DNA from: Oscillospiraceae bacterium
GTDB lineage: Bacteria > Bacillota > Clostridia > Oscillospirales > CAG-272
NCBI GenBank assembly: GCA_015065105.1
Contig: SVQZ01000009.1
Location: 7,134 to 71,133, forward strand
Reading direction: 5' to 3'
DNA length: 64,000 bases
The notes under the pieces were generated by a model, which was given only the letters and a program-made list of their open reading frames with translations, did no database searches and was not told where the DNA came from. The translations under genes were made by a program, and so were the position numbers. Below are positions 17,213 to 37,928 of the stretch, piece by piece; positions within the stretch are counted from its first letter, which is position 1; each line of letters opens with the position of its first letter.

Positions 17213-17240
17213 CAATAATTGAGGCTGTAAAAAAAGCCTG

Positions 17241-17280
17241 AAAAAAAAGGAACCATCGAAAAAGACGGTTCCTTTAAGTT
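17241..17280. terminator. Bidirectional terminator
   Basis: Stem ggaaccatc/gacggttcc (one mismatch) with A8 upstream and a T-rich stretch downstream. It is stronger for the minus strand. Confidence 0.6.
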
Positions 17281-17412
17281 TTGCATCAAAAAACTAAAAT
17301 GTGTGCAAATAAGGGTACACAAACAAAACTGCAGCCAAATACGGTAAAAAACGTTGTGGATGATCTGTATTTAAGGTCTCCGAGCTTTTTTCTCGTTTTG
17401 CCTTGTCAAGAC

Positions 17413-17523
17413 ACATCGAATTCATCAAAGATGAATATATCGAGTTGCTTGCAACATATCGAGTTTGCCTTTGGCAAATATATCGACAGCAGGGGATGAT
17501 CCCCTGCACCCTCCCGTATCGAG
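17413..17523. repeat. Array of 5 direct ATATCGAG-type repeats interleaved with 4 different perfect palindromes
   Basis: acATCGAa | ttcatc-aaa-gatgaa | tATATCGAG | ttgc-tt-gcaa | cATATCGAG | tttgcc-ttt-ggcaaa | tATATCGAC | gcagggga-tga-tcccctgc | ...gTATCGAG. Confidence 0.75.
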
Positions 17524-17599
17524 CGTAGAGTTGGATATAGCTGTTTTTTTAATGTCCGAAATAAAGTACGGTATTTTGTGAACAGAGTTCAAAAGAAAA

Positions 17600-17634
17600 A
17601 CGAACGAGAAAAAACTCGTCCGTTTGTTGTTTTT
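17600..17634. terminator. Bidirectional terminator inside the non-coding gap
   Basis: Stem acgaacgag/ctcgtccgt (one mismatch), A-run upstream and TTGTTGTTTTT downstream. Confidence 0.6.
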
Positions 17635-18009
17635 AAAGGCAATCTTACATTTTTTCATAAGATAAAGAATACTTTCCTGTCTTCTATGGCAATCTTTTCG
17701 TCAACACACAGAACCGTCCCCCTGTGCTACGGCAAATCTTGCTCTGTTTTATCGGTTAGATAATATACTACCCTTTCTTCATTCCAAAAAACTTCTAAAT
17801 AATCATCATAAAATATAAATTTATAATATAAAGTCATTTCCAAAAACATTATGTTTAGAGTAAATTATATTTTCTTGACTTTTGAGTTAATGGTGGAATT
17901 TGTCGAACGATTTTTAGGGGGGGTACCCTACCGAAAGGCAAAATCCTATGTTATAATTAAAATGAAAGCGCCGAAAGGCGTTTTAAAATTAATTATAGAG
18001 AGGTAAGAA

Positions 18010-19179
18010 ATGCCGAGAAGCGCAAAAAAAGGACTTGATTTTTGTCCGTTTGATATTATACTTTCAAAAGAAGAAGAGGCTGTTAAAAAAGAGATAGGCG
18101 GGATCTATGCTTCTGTTCTCCATCCTCTTCTCGTGAGAATATACGGCGGCGAGGGTTATTTTATTAAATGGGACAGAGAACTTGCTGAAGTCTTTTGCAA
18201 GGAGGAAATGCTGTCCCGGGACAAGGTTGACAGAGTTATCGATTCATGTATCAATAACGGTGTATTTGATAAAGAAATCTACGAAAAGTATTCTGTGCTT
18301 ACGTCAAGAAATATTCAATGTAAATACCTTAAATATACTCACAGACGTGTAAATTCATATATAGTAAAGGAATATTCTCTTATCGAAGCAAAGGATATTT
18401 CTGTAACAGAAACGGAAAATATCTGTAACAGAAATGTTATTTCTGCAACAGAAACGGATAATATCTGTAACAGAAACGTTATTTCTGCAGCAGAAACGGA
18501 AAATATCTGTAACAGAAACGTTATTTCTGCAACAGAAACGGATAATATCTGTAACAGAAACGTTATTTCTGCAGCAGAAACGGATAATATCTGTAACAGA
18601 AACGTTATTTCTGCAGCAGAAACGGATAATATCTGTAACAGAAACGTTATTTCTGCAACAGAAACGGATAATATCTGTAACAGAAATGTTATTTCTGCAG
18701 CAGAAACGGATAATATCTGTAACAGAAACGTTATTTCTGCAGCAGAAACAAACGATGATTTATATAATAATAATATTAATAATAATATTAATAATAATAA
18801 TTCTCTCTCTCTTTCTTTTAATTTAATTAATAATAAAAATAATAATAAAAAGAGATACGGAATTTATAAAAACGTAATTCTTACAGACGGTGAATACCGA
18901 GAAATCGAAGAATTATGCGATGACGTTGAATACAGTATCAATTATCTTTCAAAGGGGCTTAAAACATACGGAGAAAACATGAAATACTCATATATCCATT
19001 ACATAAAGAAGTGGATAAGCGAAGGAAAGCTGAAGGGAAAAAATAAAAAGAAAGAGAAGAATGAAATTTTCGATTACAACATTGACAGCCTTGATGCGGC
19101 AGAAAGTGAGTGTGTAAACAAAGCGTTTAACGAGCAGAAGCAAATGATAGCGCGCTATCTTTCAAAGCTTAAAGCTTAG
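18010..19179 (+). CDS. Phage-type replisome organiser / replication initiator-like protein with an internal 14-aa tandem-repeat linker
   Basis: The N-terminus (KKGLDFCPFDI..YFIKWDRELAEVF..VLTSRNIQCKYLKYTHRR) resembles the Lin1244/Lin1753-type (DUF4373) phage replisome-organiser domain. The C-terminus has the YGIYKNVILTDGEYREIEE motif common in phage replication proteins. Both identifications are from memory. The middle consists of ETDNICNRNVISAA repeated 8 times, then a poly-Asn stretch. Confidence 0.7.
   Translation: MPRSAKKGLDFCPFDIILSKEEEAVKKEIGGIYASVLHPLLVRIYGGEGYFIKWDRELAEVFCKEEMLSRDKVDRVIDSCINNGVFDKEIYEKYSVLTSRNIQCKYLKYTHRRVNSYIVKEYSLIEAKDISVTETENICNRNVISATETDNICNRNVISAAETENICNRNVISATETDNICNRNVISAAETDNICNRNVISAAETDNICNRNVISATETDNICNRNVISAAETDNICNRNVISAAETNDDLYNNNINNNINNNNSLSLSFNLINNKNNNKKRYGIYKNVILTDGEYREIEELCDDVEYSINYLSKGLKTYGENMKYSYIHYIKKWISEGKLKGKNKKKEKNEIFDYNIDSLDAAESECVNKAFNEQKQMIARYLSKLKA
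18397..18752. repeat. 8.4 tandem copies of a 42-bp unit (about 17 dyad iterons TTTCTG-N3-CAGAAA), candidate replication origin
   Basis: Units start at 18397, 18439, 18481, 18523, 18565, 18607, 18649 and 18691, with a partial unit at 18733. There are 0-4 substitutions per unit, and dyad centres are spaced 22 and 20 bp alternately. Confidence 0.85.
18753..18850. other. AT-rich tract with a CT run (candidate DNA unwinding element)
   Basis: About 100 nt with roughly a dozen G/C by my count (aataataatattaataataat...ttctctctctctttc...), immediately 3' of the iterons. Confidence 0.6.
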
Positions 19180-19210
19180 ATACGTTGTTTTATGGAACAA
19201 TTTCCTATAA
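19146..19210 (-). repeat. Short copy E of the intergenic element family
   Basis: On the minus strand, TTATAGGAAATTGTTCCA (plus-strand 19193-19210) matches copy B2 at 17 of 18 positions. It is followed by aagctttgaaag and the palindrome gatagcgcgctatc (19146-19159), which lies antisense inside the 3' end of CDS 18010..19179. Confidence 0.5.
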
Positions 19211-19213
19211 CAC

Positions 19214-19239
19214 AAAAAACGAGCCGCGAACGACTCGTT
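19214..19239 (-). terminator. Terminator of the zinc-ribbon membrane protein gene
   Basis: On the minus strand, stem aacgag..ctcgtt (with an internal mismatch) followed by TTTTTT. Confidence 0.6.
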
Positions 19240-19302
19240 CTTTGCTTAGATGGAAGGTGATGGATGATGTATATAATTACGCATAGCGTAGTTATACCTT
19301 TA

Positions 19303-19707
19303 TTATCTGCCTTTGACCTCAAAACGAAAAGAGCAACGGGGACATTTAACTGTGTGTACACCTTTCGCCTTAGGTAATCTGAGGTTTGCATGACATGAGG
19401 GACATTGACGGTAAACGTGGGTTTTTCTGTCCCGGAGCTTGTTTTTCTGAAGCTTGAAAAAACCGCCTATCCTGTTAAAAAATCTCATAAATCTCTCGTT
19501 TTCGTTTCTTCTTTTCCATACGTTCTTTGACATCATTCTGAAAATACAATAACCTATAAGAAAATAATTCAGAAGAGTAAGAATTATCGAACGGATAAAA
19601 ACATTAACAACACTCAGGATAACACCTGTCCATAAAAGGATCAGGGTCATTTTGTCCATACCGTTCCTGCCGTACATAAAGCGTATGAGTTTTTCTTTAA
19701 ATTTCAT
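19303..19707 (-). CDS. Small membrane protein with a C-terminal zinc ribbon
   Basis: Two hydrophobic helices, then CPSC..x17..CPRC. AAGGAG SD upstream. Confidence 0.7.
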   Translation of the reverse strand: MKFKEKLIRFMYGRNGMDKMTLILLWTGVILSVVNVFIRSIILTLLNYFLIGYCIFRMMSKNVWKRRNENERFMRFFNRIGGFFKLQKNKLRDRKTHVYRQCPSCHANLRLPKAKGVHTVKCPRCSFRFEVKGR

Positions 19708-19845
19708 TTACCGATATCTCCTTTTGCTGATATCATTATATTTCCCCATTATCAATTTATCATCAACTTTGGCAAAAAAATATATTGACAATAGGTTGAG
19801 ATTTGTGATTTAATATATATGTAAAATCATTTTCAGGAGTGTTTT

Positions 19846-20517
19846 ATGTTTAAGATCCTTGTTGTTGAAGATAACGCAGAGCTTCGCCGTCTCTTTTGCA
19901 AAGTTTTGGACCGTGAAGGCTATACCCCCTTGGAGGCAAAGGACGGAATAGATGCATTAGATGTTTTGGATAACGAATTTGTCGATCTTATAATATGCGA
20001 TATCATGATGCCCCGAATGGACGGGATAGAATTGGTTCGTGAGCTTCGCGATGCAAGATATACCCTTCCCGTTCTTATGATAACAGCCAAGGAGACGTTT
20101 GCCGACAAGCAGCAAAGCTTTAACGCGGGAGTTGACGATTACATGGTAAAGCCTGTTGACGTGAACGAGATGATGCTGCGCGTAAAGGCTCTTTTAAGGA
20201 GAGCAAAGATAGTTAACGAAAGAAAGCTTACATTCGGTGAAACGGTTCTTGAATACGATACCTTCACTCTCTACACAGGCAAAGGCGCTGAATGTCTTCC
20301 CCAGAAGGAATTCATGCTTTTATATAAGTTAGCGTCCAACCCCAATCATATCTATACCCGTCAGCAGATAATGGATGATATATGGGGCATGACAAGCGAA
20401 ACAGACACCCACACAGTTGACGTTCATATCAACCGTATCCGCGACAAATTGAGAGATAACGAAGATATCGAGATAGTGACGGTACGCGGTCTTGGCTATA
20501 AAGCAGTAAAAAAATGA
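19846..20517 (+). CDS. OmpR-family response regulator
   Basis: Receiver domain (ILVVEDN..DLIICDIMMPRMDG..TAK) plus winged-helix output (LPQKEFMLLYKL..VRGLGYK). Confidence 0.9.
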   Translation: MFKILVVEDNAELRRLFCKVLDREGYTPLEAKDGIDALDVLDNEFVDLIICDIMMPRMDGIELVRELRDARYTLPVLMITAKETFADKQQSFNAGVDDYMVKPVDVNEMMLRVKALLRRAKIVNERKLTFGETVLEYDTFTLYTGKGAECLPQKEFMLLYKLASNPNHIYTRQQIMDDIWGMTSETDTHTVDVHINRIRDKLRDNEDIEIVTVRGLGYKAVKK

Positions 20518-21602
20518 AAAAAGTCAGTAAGAGAGCAAAAAGATATATAACAGAAATACAAACCGATAGCGTCAAGACAGAAGGACATTCGCTGCGCTTT
20601 CATTTCGCCCTTATAATATTTATTATACTTCTTTTCGCCATGTCTTTGACAATAACGGCAACGGTGATTCTTTACCAAATGAGGTTACTTCGTGTAATTC
20701 TGGGCGGCCCTTTTTCGGTTATCATAGGTGTATTTCTGTTAAGTGTGTGCATAGCCTCCGCTCTTGCATATTATGTTAACAACCACATTTTAAGACCTAT
20801 CGTTACATTGAGTAATGCGTCAAAAAAGGTTGCAAAAGGTGACTTTTCAGTAAGGATCGACAAAAAAACGTATATCGAGGAGCTAAACACAACCTTCGAT
20901 AATTTCAACAATATGGTCAGCGAGATATCCTCTATAGAGACCCTTCGCAACGACTTCGTGGCAAACGTATCCCATGAATTCAAAACGCCCCTTTCCGCAA
21001 TCGAGGGATACGCCACACTTTTGCAGGATGAGAGTCTTTGCGCAAGCGAAAGAAATGAATACATAAAAAAGATACATGACAATACAAGGCTTTTATCCGA
21101 TCTTACAGGCAATATACTTCTGATATCAAAGCTTGATAATCAGAGCTTCACCTCCCATAAGAAGATATTCCGCTTGGACGAGCAGATAAGGGAGGCTATA
21201 CTCACCCATGAGGTAACCTGGGAAACTAAGGGTACAGAGCTTGAAATAGATCTGGAAGAAATAAACTATAACGGAGAAGAAAGCCTTTTACTTCAGGTAT
21301 GGATGAATCTTATCGGCAATGCACTCAAATTCACAGAACAGAACGGTAAGATATCGATATCGCTCAAAAGCTTTCAAAATATTGCAGTAATAAAAATAGC
21401 CGATGACGGCATCGGCATGGATAATGCTACAAAAAAGCATATATTTGAAAAATTCTATCAGGGGGATACCTCCCATAAGGGCAAAGGAAACGGTCTCGGT
21501 CTTCCCCTTTGCAAAAGGATAGTAAATCTCCACAGAGGACGAATCGAATGTGAAAGCGAACCGGGAAAAGGAACTGTCTTTACCGTTATTCTTCCATTAT
21601 AA
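20514..21602 (+). CDS. Sensor histidine kinase
   Basis: Two TM helices, a HAMP-like region, H-box SHEFKTPLSAI, and an ATPase domain with N and G boxes (NLIGNALKF, DDGIGM, GNGLGL). Overlaps the regulator gene by 4 nt. Confidence 0.9.
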   Translation: MKKVSKRAKRYITEIQTDSVKTEGHSLRFHFALIIFIILLFAMSLTITATVILYQMRLLRVILGGPFSVIIGVFLLSVCIASALAYYVNNHILRPIVTLSNASKKVAKGDFSVRIDKKTYIEELNTTFDNFNNMVSEISSIETLRNDFVANVSHEFKTPLSAIEGYATLLQDESLCASERNEYIKKIHDNTRLLSDLTGNILLISKLDNQSFTSHKKIFRLDEQIREAILTHEVTWETKGTELEIDLEEINYNGEESLLLQVWMNLIGNALKFTEQNGKISISLKSFQNIAVIKIADDGIGMDNATKKHIFEKFYQGDTSHKGKGNGLGLPLCKRIVNLHRGRIECESEPGKGTVFTVILPL

Positions 21603-24450: not shown

Positions 24451-24816
24451 TCAATAATTTAATTTTATATTATCGCAAAGCATCGCAATAAACTCGCTGT
24501 TTGTCGGTTTTCCCTTTTCACAGTTTATCGTAAAACCGAAAAGCTCGGTGAGCAAGATTATATCCCCTCTATCCCAGGCTATTGATATGGCGATCCTCAT
24601 CGCTCTTTCAACGCTGGAGGGGGTAACGTCATATTTTTGCGCCACCCTTGAATATATCTCTTTGGTTACCGAATTCATATACGTTTCGTTTTTGTAAGCC
24701 AACACTATGGCACAACGCAGATATTCATGACCCTTGATATTTGCAGGTACACCGATCCTGTGTAACAAATTAGTGACCTTTATTATTATATCCTTATTTT
24801 CTTCTTGCAGAATCAT
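24451..24816 (-). CDS. Stand-alone Spo0A C-terminal (DNA-binding) domain protein with no receiver domain
   Basis: IKGHEYLRCAIVLA..VTKEIYSRVAQKYDVTPSSVERAMRIAISIAWDRG..FGFT..GKPTNSEFIAML aligns with the Spo0A effector domain. Only 121 aa. Confidence 0.8.
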   Translation of the reverse strand: MILQEENKDIIIKVTNLLHRIGVPANIKGHEYLRCAIVLAYKNETYMNSVTKEIYSRVAQKYDVTPSSVERAMRIAISIAWDRGDIILLTELFGFTINCEKGKPTNSEFIAMLCDNIKLNY

Positions 24817-33286: not shown

Positions 33287-34120
33287 ATGGAAAAGAATTG
33301 CTTTCTTTTAGACGGTGCAATGGGCACAAGCCTTTGGGCAAAGGCTGAAAAACAGCTCCCTGTATGGAGATACAATACCGAATGTCCCGAAATAGTTTCA
33401 GAGCTTCACCGCGAATATATCGAGGCGGGTTCTGATTACATTTTCACCAACACCTTCAGTGCAAACAGAGATAACGTTGCAAAAAGCGGATACAGCGTTG
33501 CAGAGGTCGTAAAAAAGGGTGTTGAGCTTGCAAAGAAGGCGGCAGAAGGCACCAACACCAAGGTCGTTCTTGATATCGGCCCTCTTTCCGAGCTTTTAGA
33601 GCCCTACGGTGACCTTGAAGAAGAGGATGCCATCGAGATATATGAGGAGCAGATAGGCGCAGGCGCCGAAATGGAACCCGATGTTATTCTCTTTGAAACC
33701 TTTATGGACAAAGAAATGCTCAGAATCGCAGTTTCTGTTGCAGAAAGGTATAACGTTCCGATATGGTGCTCCATGAGCTTTGACCAGCATGGAAGAACAA
33801 TGATGGGTAATTCTGTTAAGGATATGATCGATACCTTATCAGAGTTTAAGGTAGAGGCTGTCGGTCTCAACTGCTCTCTGGGTCCCGACCTTGCAGTTCC
33901 GGTTATCGCACAGTTCAAGGAATACACAGACCTTCCTCTTATATTCAAGCCCAACGCAGGAAAGAACACCATCAAGGACGGTAAGGTAATTACAGAATTC
34001 AGCGTTGAGACCTTTGTGGAGGATGCAGTCGCTTCTCTCGAACACGGTGTAAAGTACCTCGGCGGCTGTTGCGGCTCTTCCCCCGAATATATCAAGGCAA
34101 TGAAGGAAAAGCTGAACTGA
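33287..34120 (+). CDS. Homocysteine S-methyltransferase domain protein
   Basis: LLDGAMGT, FTNTFSAN, GLNCSLGP and GGCCGSSPEYI (zinc-binding Cys motifs). Confidence 0.85.
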   Translation: MEKNCFLLDGAMGTSLWAKAEKQLPVWRYNTECPEIVSELHREYIEAGSDYIFTNTFSANRDNVAKSGYSVAEVVKKGVELAKKAAEGTNTKVVLDIGPLSELLEPYGDLEEEDAIEIYEEQIGAGAEMEPDVILFETFMDKEMLRIAVSVAERYNVPIWCSMSFDQHGRTMMGNSVKDMIDTLSEFKVEAVGLNCSLGPDLAVPVIAQFKEYTDLPLIFKPNAGKNTIKDGKVITEFSVETFVEDAVASLEHGVKYLGGCCGSSPEYIKAMKEKLN

Positions 34121-35239: not shown

Positions 35240-36390
35240 TTGTTTTCTCCTTTCTTTGTGCCGCGGAAGTTTATCTTATAGCTGATACAGAACTCACAAA
35301 CAATAATAGCAAAAATTATTATACCTGTGAGAACGTCGCCTATACTCGCGTCTATCTTAAGAGCATCGGTCGCCGCCGCTCCGCCGTCACGCATAAATAC
35401 TATAAGGAAGGAAACAAGCACCATGGTAAGGGGATTAAACTTTGCCATCCATGATACGAGGATCGCAGTAAAGCCCTGACCGCCGACAAGATCGGGATTC
35501 ATCGAGGGGGTAGGTGTACCTGCTACAAGAAGAATACCTGTAAGACCGCAGATAGCACCGGAAATAGCCATTGTTCTTATAATTACCTTCTTTACGTTGA
35601 TACCAACGTACTTTGCGGTATTCCGGCTTTCGCCAACAACCGATATTTCATAGCCCTGCTTGCTGTACTTAAGATAGATATAAACTATAACGGTAACAAC
35701 AGCTATTATAATAATATTAAGAATATAGGGCTTACCGAACAGTCTGGGCAGCCAGCCGAATTGTGTTCTTTCGTTGATAATACCGAGATTGTTATGTCCC
35801 GATTTATCTGTAACCATTATAAAGTAACCTACGATAGTGGTTGCAACGTAGTTCATCATAAGAGTATATAAGGTTTCGTTCGTATTCCATATCGCCTTGA
35901 ATATTGCAGGAATAAGACCCCATATCATACCGGCGAGTATTGCCGCGGCAAACATAAGAGCAATAAGCATCGATTCGTAGAGATAGGGACCGAACTTAAG
36001 CATTACGTAGGTTGCGGCAAGAGAGCCCATAAGCACCTGACCCTCAGCACCGATATTCCAGAACTTCATTTTAAATGCGGGAGTTACCGCAAGGGATATA
36101 GCGAGAAGTATTGCAACGGAATGGTAGGATTTGAGCTTTGTTACCTCACCGCCAAACGTTCCCTTGAACATTTCAACATATACCTTTATGGGATCGATAC
36201 CCGAAATTGCGGTAACAAGAAGACCGCAGAACACAAGTGCAACTGCAATAGCAATAAGGGTATAACCCAAATGAGCCATTTTACTTACACTCGTTCTTTT
36301 TGTAATATGAATCAAGGGCTCGTGCTTTGTCTTATATTTTTGTCCGGGATCCGTCTTTGATCCACGCTTTGATTTCAAATAAGAATTCAT
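35236..36390 (-). CDS. ABC transporter permease (YufP-like)
   Basis: Multi-pass membrane protein. Overlaps the next gene by 4 nt. Confidence 0.85.
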   Translation of the reverse strand: MNSYLKSKRGSKTDPGQKYKTKHEPLIHITKRTSVSKMAHLGYTLIAIAVALVFCGLLVTAISGIDPIKVYVEMFKGTFGGEVTKLKSYHSVAILLAISLAVTPAFKMKFWNIGAEGQVLMGSLAATYVMLKFGPYLYESMLIALMFAAAILAGMIWGLIPAIFKAIWNTNETLYTLMMNYVATTIVGYFIMVTDKSGHNNLGIINERTQFGWLPRLFGKPYILNIIIIAVVTVIVYIYLKYSKQGYEISVVGESRNTAKYVGINVKKVIIRTMAISGAICGLTGILLVAGTPTPSMNPDLVGGQGFTAILVSWMAKFNPLTMVLVSFLIVFMRDGGAAATDALKIDASIGDVLTGIIIFAIIVCEFCISYKINFRGTKKGENK

Positions 36391-37928
36391 TATACACCCT
36401 CCCCTGCTGCTTTAGATTTTGTCATTAAGAGACCGATCTCTTCCTTGGTTGTTGTTCTTGCATCAACCACACCTGTGATCGAGCCGGAGCCGATAACAAG
36501 TATTCTGTCGCAAAGCTCGATAAGAACGTCGAGGTCTTCACCGACAAAGATAACGGCGGTGCCGTTTTCCTTCTGCTGGTTAAGAAGATTATATATAAGG
36601 TAAGAAGAATTGATATCAAGTCCGCGTACCGGATATGCCGCCATAAGGACCTTCGGAGATGAAGATATTTCACGTCCGACGAGCACCTTCTGAACGTTAC
36701 CTCCCGAAAGCTGTCTTACGGGAGTGGTCGCATCGGGGGTAACGACCTGAAGGTCGTTGATTATTTTAGCGGCAAGATTTTTAGGACCTGTCCTTTCAAG
36801 GAACAAGCTCTTACCCTTTGAATAGCTTCTAAGCATCATATTATCTATGATATCCATGTTTCCTACCAGACCCATACCGAGTCTGTCCTCGGGAACAAAG
36901 GAAAGTCTTACTCCGAGATCACGTATCTGCAGGGGAGTTTTGTCACGGAGATTATCCTGCTGATTTGTTTTAGGGTTATTATAAAGTATCTCTCCTTCGG
37001 TAAGATGCTGAAGTCCTGCGATAGATTCAAGAAGCTCTCGCTGACCGGAGCCTGCGATACCCGCTATACCGAGTATCTCGCCGCCGTAAGCATCAAAGGA
37101 AATATCATTCAATACCTGAACACCCTCGCGGTTTTTACAGGAAATATGCTTGACCTCAAGACGCTTTACGGGATTTTCAACAGCGGATCTTTCAATATTG
37201 AGAGTTATCTTCTTGCCAACCATCATTTCGGTAAGCTCGGATTCGTTGGTGCCTACCGTTTCAACAGTACCGACGTATTCGCCCTTACGAAGCACCGCAA
37301 CCTTATCCGAGAGAGATAAAACCTCATGCAATTTATGTGTTATGATTATAATTGACTTGCCTTGGTCACGCATCCTGCGTAATACCGAGAAGAGCTTTTC
37401 TGTCTCCTGAGGGGTAAGAACCGCGGTAGGCTCGTCAAGAATAAGTATATCGGCGCCTCTGTACAACACTTTAATTATTTCAACCGTCTGCTTCTCGGAA
37501 ACAGACATATTATATACCTTTTTCTTAGGATCGATATCAAAGCCGTACAAGGAAGATATCTCGGTAACCTTTGCCTCTGCAGTCTTGATATTTGCAAGAG
37601 ACTTATCCTCATTTCCCAGCACGATATTTTCTGTTGCAGAAAAAACATCAACAAGCTTGAAATGCTGATGTATCATACCTATCTTGTATTTGAAGGCATC
37701 CTTGGGAGAGGATATAACCACTTCCTCGCCATTAATTAAAATACTGCCCTCGTCGGGATAATATATTCCCGATATCATATTCATAAGTGTTGTTTTACCA
37801 CTGCCGTTTTCTCCGAGGATCGATAAGATCTCGCCCTTTGATACACTAAGGGAAACGTTATTATTCGCAATTATGCTGCCGAATCTTTTGGTAATATTAC
37901 GTAATTCTATCGCTATGTTAGAACTCAC
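36390..37928 (-). CDS. ABC transporter ATP-binding protein with duplicated ATPase domains
   Basis: GENGSGKTT, LSVSEKQ and ILDEPT in the first half, with a second ATPase domain in the C-terminal half. GTG start with GGGAGG upstream. Confidence 0.9.
   Translation of the reverse strand: MSSNIAIELRNITKRFGSIIANNNVSLSVSKGEILSILGENGSGKTTLMNMISGIYYPDEGSILINGEEVVISSPKDAFKYKIGMIHQHFKLVDVFSATENIVLGNEDKSLANIKTAEAKVTEISSLYGFDIDPKKKVYNMSVSEKQTVEIIKVLYRGADILILDEPTAVLTPQETEKLFSVLRRMRDQGKSIIIITHKLHEVLSLSDKVAVLRKGEYVGTVETVGTNESELTEMMVGKKITLNIERSAVENPVKRLEVKHISCKNREGVQVLNDISFDAYGGEILGIAGIAGSGQRELLESIAGLQHLTEGEILYNNPKTNQQDNLRDKTPLQIRDLGVRLSFVPEDRLGMGLVGNMDIIDNMMLRSYSKGKSLFLERTGPKNLAAKIINDLQVVTPDATTPVRQLSGGNVQKVLVGREISSSPKVLMAAYPVRGLDINSSYLIYNLLNQQKENGTAVIFVGEDLDVLIELCDRILVIGSGSITGVVDARTTTKEEIGLLMTKSKAAGEGV

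Follow-up and report, generated by a model that had tools for sequence, protein, structure and literature searches.

The 64,000-nt stretch of contig SVQZ01000009.1 from an Oscillospiraceae bacterium that was analyzed here (the window) contains a gene for a phage-type replication initiator in which an array of 17 phased dyads, followed directly by an AT-rich tract, separates the N-terminal domain from the C-terminal domain. We think it probable that this feature is the in-gene origin region of a phage- or plasmid-type replication (rep) module that became stranded in the chromosome, and that it is now a cryptic remnant no longer firing autonomously. The evidence consists of the anatomy of the repeat, the identity of the N-terminal domain, the conservation of dyad type, position and phasing in phage genes, the orphan context of the gene and its allelic polymorphism. 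An earlier note on this DNA, made from the sequence alone, had described a lambda-ori-like iteron layout inside an orphan phage-type replisome-organiser gene; both the identity and the layout are supported by the Lin1244_N domain, the dyads, the AT-rich tract and the context.

The repeat array and its initiator gene

The gene and its parts are located as follows (window coordinates).

18010–19179, plus strand: gene for a phage-type replication initiator or replisome organiser, 389 amino acids (aa), defined by its open reading frame (ORF) and by Pfam and PHROG matches
18010–18396, plus strand: N-terminal Lin1244_N (DUF4373) domain, presumed iteron-binding module, defined by Pfam and PHROG matches
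18397–18749, no strand assigned: iteron array, 8.4 × 42 bp, 17 dyads with centres 22/20 bp apart
18750–18850, no strand assigned: AT-rich tract, candidate DNA-unwinding element, 8.9% GC, translated as a poly-Asn linker
18851–19179, plus strand: C-terminal domain, presumed partner-recruiting module, with the motif YGxYxNVxLTDxEY followed by helices

A 42-bp unit present in 8.4 copies was detected at 18396–18749 by Tandem Repeats Finder (96% matches, no indels, score 645). When the units are printed in register from 18397, the array consists of eight complete copies and a partial ninth. Each unit is composed of two dyads, TTTCTG-N3-CAGAAA and TATCTG-N3-CAGAAA, so that the array holds 17 sites of the form T[T/A]TCTG-N3-CAGAAA, nine of the first type and eight of the second. 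The dyad starts alternate between 22 and 20 bp apart, and the mean of 21 bp corresponds to two helical turns. The head-to-tail repeat, the two dyads per unit, the alternating spacing and the number of about 17 sites given in the earlier note are thus all reproduced. Substitutions within the array are confined to three kinds of position, namely the centre of dyad A (TAA/CAA/CAG), GGAA/GGAT and AAAC/AAAT. The core TCTGNNNCAGAAA occurs 30 times in the window, counting both strands, compared to an expectation of 0.12 from dinucleotide-preserving shuffles. The array dyads begin at codon 130 of the ORF, directly after the N-terminal domain. Two lone perfect dyads, TTTCTGTTGCAGAAA, are located elsewhere in the window in unrelated genes, at 33732–33746 (gene 33287–34120, plus strand) and 37628–37642 (gene 36390–37928, minus strand), where they encode VSVAE and FSATE; these could be coincidental or could be extra putative binding sites.

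The array is followed directly by 101 bp with a GC content of 8.9% (18750–18850), which include the lowest-GC 100-bp segment of the whole 64 kb and combine an (AAT)n microsatellite with a CT run. Only the frame of the gene is open across this tract, and it reads NDDLYNNNINNNINNNNSLSLSFNLINNKNNNK (poly-Asn) there; the other two frames contain 1 and 15 stop codons. Composition and reading frame therefore agree with the earlier description of a stretch of about 100 bp of A/T with a CT tract, translated in frame as poly-Asn.

The ATG of the gene is preceded, 6 nt upstream, by the ribosome-binding site GAGAGG. The encoded protein matches Lin1244_N (PF14297) with 56.2 bits (9.9e-16) over its whole length and with 58.7 bits for residues 1–129, the gathering cut-off being 25. 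The N-terminal domain also matches several PHROG families at 1e-17 to 5e-26, including phrog_20437 (5e-26), phrog_2562 (9e-24) and 16706, and the annotations of the matched families are DNA replication initiation, replication initiation protein and replisome organizer. The N-terminal relationship to DUF4373 and replisome-organiser models that the earlier note had proposed to look for is thus confirmed by both collections (56 bits against 25 for Lin1244_N, and the initiator families of PHROG). The C-terminal domain, for which the note had suggested the same comparison, gave no match to DnaD or Rep_Org_C. Residues 281–389 have no match in Pfam, PHROG or NCBIfam, and are neither Rep_Org_C nor DnaB_2/DnaD-like. 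Because the motif YGxYxNVxLTDxEY of this region recurs in 8 of the 155 relatives fetched, as well as in a protein of Monoglobus pectinilyticus (L187), the C-terminal domain is a real, unnamed module of the Lin1244_N family that is carried by a minority of its members.

An AlphaFold model of the initiator, built from a 36-sequence alignment, has two end domains with a predicted local distance difference test score (pLDDT) above 90 (>90 at residues 20–110 and ~93–96 at residues 280–320). Between them, disorder is predicted for residues 135–276, which comprise the repeat and poly-Asn part (pLDDT 35–45). A Foldseek search of the model against the PDB returned nothing significant (best E = 0.9). 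The top weak matches (E ≥ 0.9) are winged-helix DNA-binding proteins, such as MarR, TubR and ArsR-type repressors; coming from non-significant matches, the winged-helix resemblance of the N-terminal domain of the model is only suggestive. A sequence-profile search of the PDB with the initiator gave no significant match.

Relatives of the N-terminal domain were taken from an exhaustive HMMER search; a word-index search with this domain alone had given a single match. The family is very large, with 4576 clusters at 50% identity below E = 1e-3 (HMMER). The closest relative from outside the window's species is 41% identical in the N-terminal domain, and a scan of genome contigs yielded four relatives only, at 31–36% identity. 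The protein thus belongs to an isolated lineage.

Related genes in phages and known in-gene origins

Phage sequences in IMG/VR were collected in two ways. A scan by the bare DNA pattern TCTGNNNCAGAAA-N4-9-TCTGNNNCAGAAA picked out 88 loci. At least 62 of these have their dyads within a Lin1244_N ORF, immediately behind the N-terminal domain and ~430–600 nt from the in-frame stop upstream, with ORFs taken from stop to stop. The spacing of the dyads in these 62 loci is nearly always 21 bp, and they are usually present in 2–4 copies. Among the remaining 26 loci are family members that are truncated or divergent, such as L028 and L034. In the phage genes with TTTCTG-N3-CAGAAA, the dyads are all read in one codon phase (ISATET) and are followed by CCACAAAGTAAAG. 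Near-identical phage genes vary in the number of dyads, with two in L090, three in L009 and four in L051. One Lin1244_N phage gene with a 444-aa ORF (L027, 7570–8110) carries the whole module of repeats and A-rich tract in triplicate: 2–4 × GTTTCTGAAGCAGAAAC plus a AAAGTAAAG tract, three times, which amounts to 10–11 dyads.

The second phage set (L190–L269) was selected by protein similarity to the window protein and comprises 64 distinct genes. A purine-rich (AAAGTAAAGTAAAGG)n tract, translated as SKVKESK, is found in 57 of the 64 at ~445–475 nt from the start of the aligned N-terminal domain. Most genes of this set have three AATGTnnACATT dyads, spaced by 21 bp, directly upstream of the purine-rich tract, and represent the commonest class. 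Other dyads are used elsewhere in the family: orf16 of the Lactococcus prophage bIL286 contains 3 × CATTAAC-N3-GTTAATG followed by AAAGTAAAG, and the Monoglobus gene contains 3 × GAAAATGTATACAT, also followed by AAAGTAAAG. As judged from these sequences, the rule of the family is an N-terminal domain, 2–4 phased dyads, an A-rich tract and a C-terminal domain. We did not find this family-wide origin signature, phased dyads plus a purine-rich tract, described in the literature searched. The window gene lacks the purine-rich (AAAGTAAAG)n tract (SKVKESK) that usually follows the repeats and has (AAT)n and CT instead, at 9% GC.

The N-terminal domains cluster by dyad class, with mean BLAST scores of 148 and 206 bits inside the two classes and 47 between them, in a comparison that is confounded by shared ancestry and by the manner in which the two sets were chosen. 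Such a grouping fits a role of the N-terminal domain as the reader of the sites.

The genomic neighbors of these genes are those of replication modules. Both bIL286 orf16 and gp38 of Bacillus phage Pavlov have a DnaC-like loader directly after them and recombinase or SSB genes before them. The L095 initiator gene adjoins RecE/RecT/SSB genes, that of L096 a DnaB-like helicase gene, and that of L071 RecT and RusA. In bacterial genomes, too, the neighbors of relatives are RecE/RecT/SSB or DnaB-like genes. Some members of the family are plasmid-borne. The domain organization of bIL286 orf16 joins Lin1244_N with Rep_Org_C, the latter as in Rep2009, and on this basis the Lin1244_N family appears to be linked to the Rep2009-class initiators through domain shuffling.

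The two dyad types of the window array fall into different codon phases. The TTTCTG dyad is read as A/TT TCT GCA GCA GAA A and yields ISAAET, and the TATCTG dyad is read as AA/T ATC TGT AAC AGA AA and yields NICNRN. Since one dyad is thus read in two codon phases, and since the encoded linker is predicted to be disordered, the constraint in the array appears to act on the nucleotide motif and not on the peptide. Among the 150 relatives of the N-terminal domain ranked best by HMMER, none has an ISAAET-type peptide, which is therefore not a conserved feature of the family. A protein from a higher-GC host that is 35% identical to the window protein (P0006 in L004) is encoded with four copies of GTTTC(C/T)GCA(G/A)CAGAAAC, which are spaced by exactly 21 bp, occupy the corresponding place in the gene and are followed by CCACAAAGTAAAGTAAAG. 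Free divergence of the repeat DNA in homologues, which the earlier note had named as evidence against an origin, is not what we observe, as the dyad is retained in L004 and in the 62 of 88 phage loci.

Origins of this general kind have been studied in other phages. In TP901-1 and Tuc2009, the origin consists of direct repeats that lie within the initiator gene and are bound by its product, ORF13 and Rep2009, respectively (PMC8965321). When cloned, such in-gene origins give a copy-number-dependent phage resistance, Per (PMC8965321, PMC6356513). The oriL of SPP1 lies inside gene 38 and consists of direct repeats together with an AT-rich unwinding element, bound by gp38 (PMC6316719). In the record of Tuc2009, orf16 carries the annotation 'contains origin of replication'. 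The experimentally tested initiators are without Lin1244_N: Rep2009 has Rep_Org_C, TP901-1 ORF13 has HTH_36 and DnaB_2, and r1t ORF11 has Phg_2220_C.

The genes of the lactococcal P335 group (Rep2009, TP901-1 ORF13, r1t ORF11 and bIL286 orf16) resemble the window gene in having repeats and an A/T-rich tract between their N- and C-terminal parts, and bIL286 orf16 further shares the Lin1244_N N-terminal domain, 21-bp dyads (three) and an A-rich tract. They differ in having 3–4 dyads instead of 17, a different C-terminal domain, and AAAGTAAAG instead of (AAT)n. Moreover, the P335-group genes sit in phage replication modules, where bIL286 orf16 and r1t ORF11 are followed by a DnaC-like loader, whereas the window gene is solitary. 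Uncultured Lin1244_N phages from IMG/VR (L071, L009, L027) share with the window the dyad core, the 21-bp phasing, the position in the gene and a variable copy number. Compared to the TTTCTG-N3-CAGAAA phages, the window array has two dyad types that alternate at 22/20 bp in two codon phases, while the phages use one phase, and it is 4–8 times larger (17 dyads versus 2–4). The N-terminal domain of the window protein is distantly related to the proteins of these phages (≤68 bits).

The lambda origin likewise consists of phased repeats and an AT-rich unwinding element within gene O. Thus, the window gene, SPP1 oriL/gene 38 and lambda ori/gene O all have phased repeats next to an AT-rich unwinding element, or a candidate for one, in the initiator's own gene. 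SPP1 G38P and lambda O have no detectable sequence homology to the window protein and are analogues: the window protein contains no Pfam domain of either, and SPP1 and lambda are absent among the 33 phage records matched by tblastn. SPP1 gene 38 and lambda O are each followed by a dedicated helicase loader (gp39 and P, respectively), which is absent at the window locus. An origin inside an initiator gene is therefore a layout already known; what is unusual here is the copy number of 17, the variation between strains, the solitary context and the replacement of AAAGTAAAG by (AAT)n.

The islet, its surroundings and the alleles

The initiator gene lies in an islet of ~2.1 kb (17213–19302) with 34–37% GC, compared to 43–44% in the flanking genes, which supports a foreign origin. 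Two further features belong to this islet.

17213–18009, no strand assigned: non-coding leader of the islet (0.8-kb gap), 35% GC
19221–19250, plus strand: terminator-like hairpin after the initiator gene; the islet ends before the Zn-ribbon gene

The leader contains bidirectional terminator-like hairpins at 17246–17275 and 17598–17625, three copies of AATATATCGA(G) at 17434, 17453 and 17477, and several short palindromes. These features suggest a lost or small unannotated gene or RNA. The small ORFs of the leader have no match in Pfam, PHROG or NCBIfam, and a known RNA in the 0.8-kb gap was rejected since all Rfam matches are below threshold. Immediately upstream of the ribosome-binding site, a 21-nt inverted repeat, TATAATTAAAATGAAAGCGCC at 17952–17972 and GGCGTTTTAAAATTAATTATA at 17977–17997, covers a TATAAT and the 5′ untranslated region; it may serve as an autoregulatory operator or form an attenuator hairpin.

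The immediate neighbors are a gene for a Sel1 protein, the 0.8-kb gap, a gene for a Zn-ribbon membrane protein on the minus strand, and genes for a response regulator and a histidine kinase, in agreement with the earlier note. The flanking 10 kb on each side encode shikimate-pathway enzymes, GalT, a GH106 glycosidase, the Sel1 and Zn-ribbon proteins, the two-component system, Rrf2 and CysK, as well as DUF815, a Spo0A_C protein, GntR and an ABC transporter. No phage, plasmid, integrase, partition, helicase or helicase-loader gene was found within 10 kb on either side, and the orphan context claimed earlier, with no integrase, helicase or loader, terminase or structural gene nearby, thus extends over this distance. 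No direct or inverted repeats of at least 11 nt flank the islet, and there are no att-like repeats. An intact integrated element was therefore rejected, as flanking repeats, an integrase and phage genes are all missing and the ORFs in the gap have no family matches. A megablast search of 24 kb against plasmids gave no match, and the islet DNA has no similarity to phage records. A known anti-phage defence system was likewise rejected: there are no defence genes near the initiator, which has no PADLOC match, and its neighbors have weak matches to generic ATPases only.

The Zn-ribbon gene (minus strand) is transcribed divergently from the response regulator and histidine kinase genes (19303–21602). 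This trio is also found in distant relatives (L107, L108, L149, L172) that have no rep gene, and the Zn-ribbon gene was for this reason rejected as a part of the islet. Relatives of the response regulator in a metagenome scan are at most 69% identical, and their synteny does not extend past the trio. Looking up exact copies of the Zn-ribbon protein turned up no contig that lacks the initiator gene; in 10 of the 32 index blocks that list this protein, the longest contig is below 5 kb (e.g. L275). A separate gene nearby, at 24451–24816 on the minus strand, encodes a 121-aa protein that consists of the Spo0A C-terminal DNA-binding domain alone (PF08769, 1.8e-38), without a receiver domain, and adjoins the gene for the DUF815 AAA ATPase.

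The cumulative GC skew of the window peaks at ~20 kb, where the orientation of the genes shifts from mostly plus to mostly minus. The GC skew at third codon positions (GC3 skew) of same-strand genes is equal on both sides of this point, and the peak is thus an effect of the gene strand. Only three DnaA boxes, each with one mismatch, are present in 3.5 kb, and they form no cluster. A chromosome origin or terminus was rejected on these two grounds.

Solitary genes of this family are found in other Clostridia. Two further Lin1244_N genes are located in chromosomal surroundings, L006 10001–10759 (GCA_052835605.1) and L187 5479–6333. The replicon that carries the latter is annotated as 'plasmid 12' of Monoglobus pectinilyticus (517 kb, probably a fragment of the chromosome), and the C-terminal domain of the encoded protein is of the same type as that of the window protein.

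The initiator gene is present in 23 of the 23 contigs examined from the window's species, and the number of repeats varies between strains, a point that the earlier note had left to comparison of related genomes. The alleles encode proteins of 389, 333 and 305 aa (the last in two variants), with 8.4, 4.4 and 2.4 units, that is, 17, 9 and 5 dyads. Contigs with different alleles are 99.95% identical over 21 kb, and each shorter allele can be derived from the longest by deletion of whole units. The 389-aa allele is the commonest (16 of ~21 contigs); the 16 contigs that encode its identical product come from both ENA and JGI assemblies. The array contains no repeated 99-, 127- or 140-mers. As no 99-mer is repeated, it can be resolved by short-read de Bruijn assembly. 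The short alleles are probably real, because they require junction k-mers absent from the long allele. The array is a break point for short-read assembly, and several contigs stop within it. Elsewhere in the same region, the histidine kinase of L104 (5505–6592, JGI 3300022661) is split into ORFs of 183 and 142 aa, while it is intact, with 362 aa, in the window and the other contigs; the split is either a frameshift variant or an assembly error.

A stranded rep module and the alternatives

In the reading that we favor, the locus is a stranded module whose parts would have worked as in other iteron origins. Dimers of the Lin1244_N domain would bind the dyads, all of which lie on one face of the helix at the mean spacing of 21 bp, and the resulting nucleoprotein complex would strain the AT-rich tract beside it. 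From there, the C-terminal domain would normally pass the process on to a helicase loader and helicase. The array has probably grown by slippage or unequal recombination of whole units; the 42-bp unit preserves the reading frame. The initiator may still be made and may still bind. Binding of the dyads by the protein and unwinding of the tract are what we infer by analogy with the systems described above, and the present inactivity of the locus is likewise a deduction. An inactive remnant is likely because there is no loader, helicase or phage gene nearby and because the AAAGTAAAG tract has been replaced by (AAT)n. The earlier note had concluded from the near-identity of the units that the array is not a decayed relic; this does not follow, as recent slippage in a stranded module explains the near-identity equally well.

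Several observations weigh against this reading. The ORF, the ribosome-binding site and both folded domains are intact, and an intact gene that is present in all 23 contigs of the species would also fit a retained function. The N-terminal domain of the window protein is nearer to the proteins with AATGTnnACATT dyads (~90 bits) than to those with TTTCTG-N3-CAGAAA (mean 33, maximum 68), although this comparison is biased in that the AATGTnnACATT set was chosen for similarity to the window protein. Because of this affinity, the putative binding of the protein to the dyads of its own gene is deduced only from position and architecture. The departure of the AT-rich tract from the family norm could mean decay or an alternative unwinding element. 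Finally, the sampled strains are nearly clonal, so that selection cannot be measured from them.

One alternative is a live secondary or autonomous origin, in which the initiator would bind the 17 dyads, melt the AT-rich tract and recruit the host loader through its C-terminal domain, so that the locus would serve either as an additional origin of the chromosome or as the replicon of an excisable element. Every formal part of an iteron origin is present, the gene, its ribosome-binding site, the promoter-like TATAAT and the terminator are intact, the C-terminal domain is conserved and predicted to be folded, and some members of the family reside on plasmids. Nevertheless, we regard a live origin as quite improbable. 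Loader, helicase, integrase and partition genes are missing from the 10 kb on either side, as are flanking direct repeats for excision and the conserved AAAGTAAAG tract, and the GC3 skew indicates no local change in the direction of replication, nor is there a cluster of DnaA boxes. In iteron replicons, moreover, surplus iterons usually act as inhibitors, by titration and handcuffing. A second alternative is a domesticated anti-phage decoy. Here the array, alone or together with the initiator, would block the replication of TTTCTG-N3-CAGAAA phages by titrating or handcuffing their initiators and origins. It would be a natural single-copy counterpart of Per or of plasmid incompatibility; selection would then favor more copies, and the number of repeats would tune the strength of the decoy. 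By analogy, a 17-site array is the kind of structure that would restrain elements sharing its initiator, much as extra origin binding sites restrain the replication of such elements in plasmid handcuffing. The decoy is consistent with the copy-number-dependent resistance conferred by cloned in-gene origins, with the abundance in gut viromes (IMG/VR) of phages that have the same dyad, with an array 4–8 times the size of theirs, with the predominance of the largest allele and with the presence of the gene throughout the species. We nonetheless consider it unlikely: Per was demonstrated with cloned origins on multicopy plasmids and the window array is a single chromosomal copy, no known defence genes or PADLOC matches are nearby, no cognate phage of the window's host is known, allele frequencies say little among nearly clonal strains, and slippage without selection explains the same data. 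By a related analogy, the protein-bound array as a barrier to replication forks is a possibility; such a role has been proposed for G38P bound at SPP1 oriR.

Two further explanations concern the nature of the repeat and its copy number. The array could be purely a repeat of the protein, a low-complexity linker of (ISAAETDNICNRNV)n and poly-Asn grown by slippage, in which the DNA symmetry has no function. The array is indeed in frame and translated, the disordered linker predicted for it would tolerate changes in length, and there is a weak, below-threshold match to Galaxin_repeat. This explanation is very doubtful given that the same DNA dyad yields unrelated peptides in its two codon phases, that phage genes conserve the dyad together with its 21-bp phasing and its position even though their hosts differ widely in GC content, and that the peptide motif is absent from the 150 best protein relatives. 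Alternatively, the copy number, or its variation between strains, could be an artefact, as all the assemblies are short-read metagenome assemblies and several contigs terminate in the array. We find this extremely unlikely, since the array has no repeated 99-, 127- or 140-mers, the 389-aa allele was recovered 16 times by two pipelines, and the junction k-mers of the short alleles do not exist in the long one.

If a decoy or fork-barrier function were true, the locus would be more notable than a stranded module. An orphan with 5, 9 or 17 sites provides a natural allele series in either case, whether the array is neutral debris, interferes with related phages or disturbs the replication of the chromosome. 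Even if the locus is only debris, it holds a lesson for annotation, in that a 'protein tandem repeat' can really be an element at the DNA level. The locus is a clear sequence-level example of the origin-in-initiator-gene layout for the very large and experimentally unstudied Lin1244_N/DUF4373 family, and the phased-dyad layout, together with the grouping of N-terminal domains by dyad class, makes the prediction of origins in many gut phages straightforward to test.

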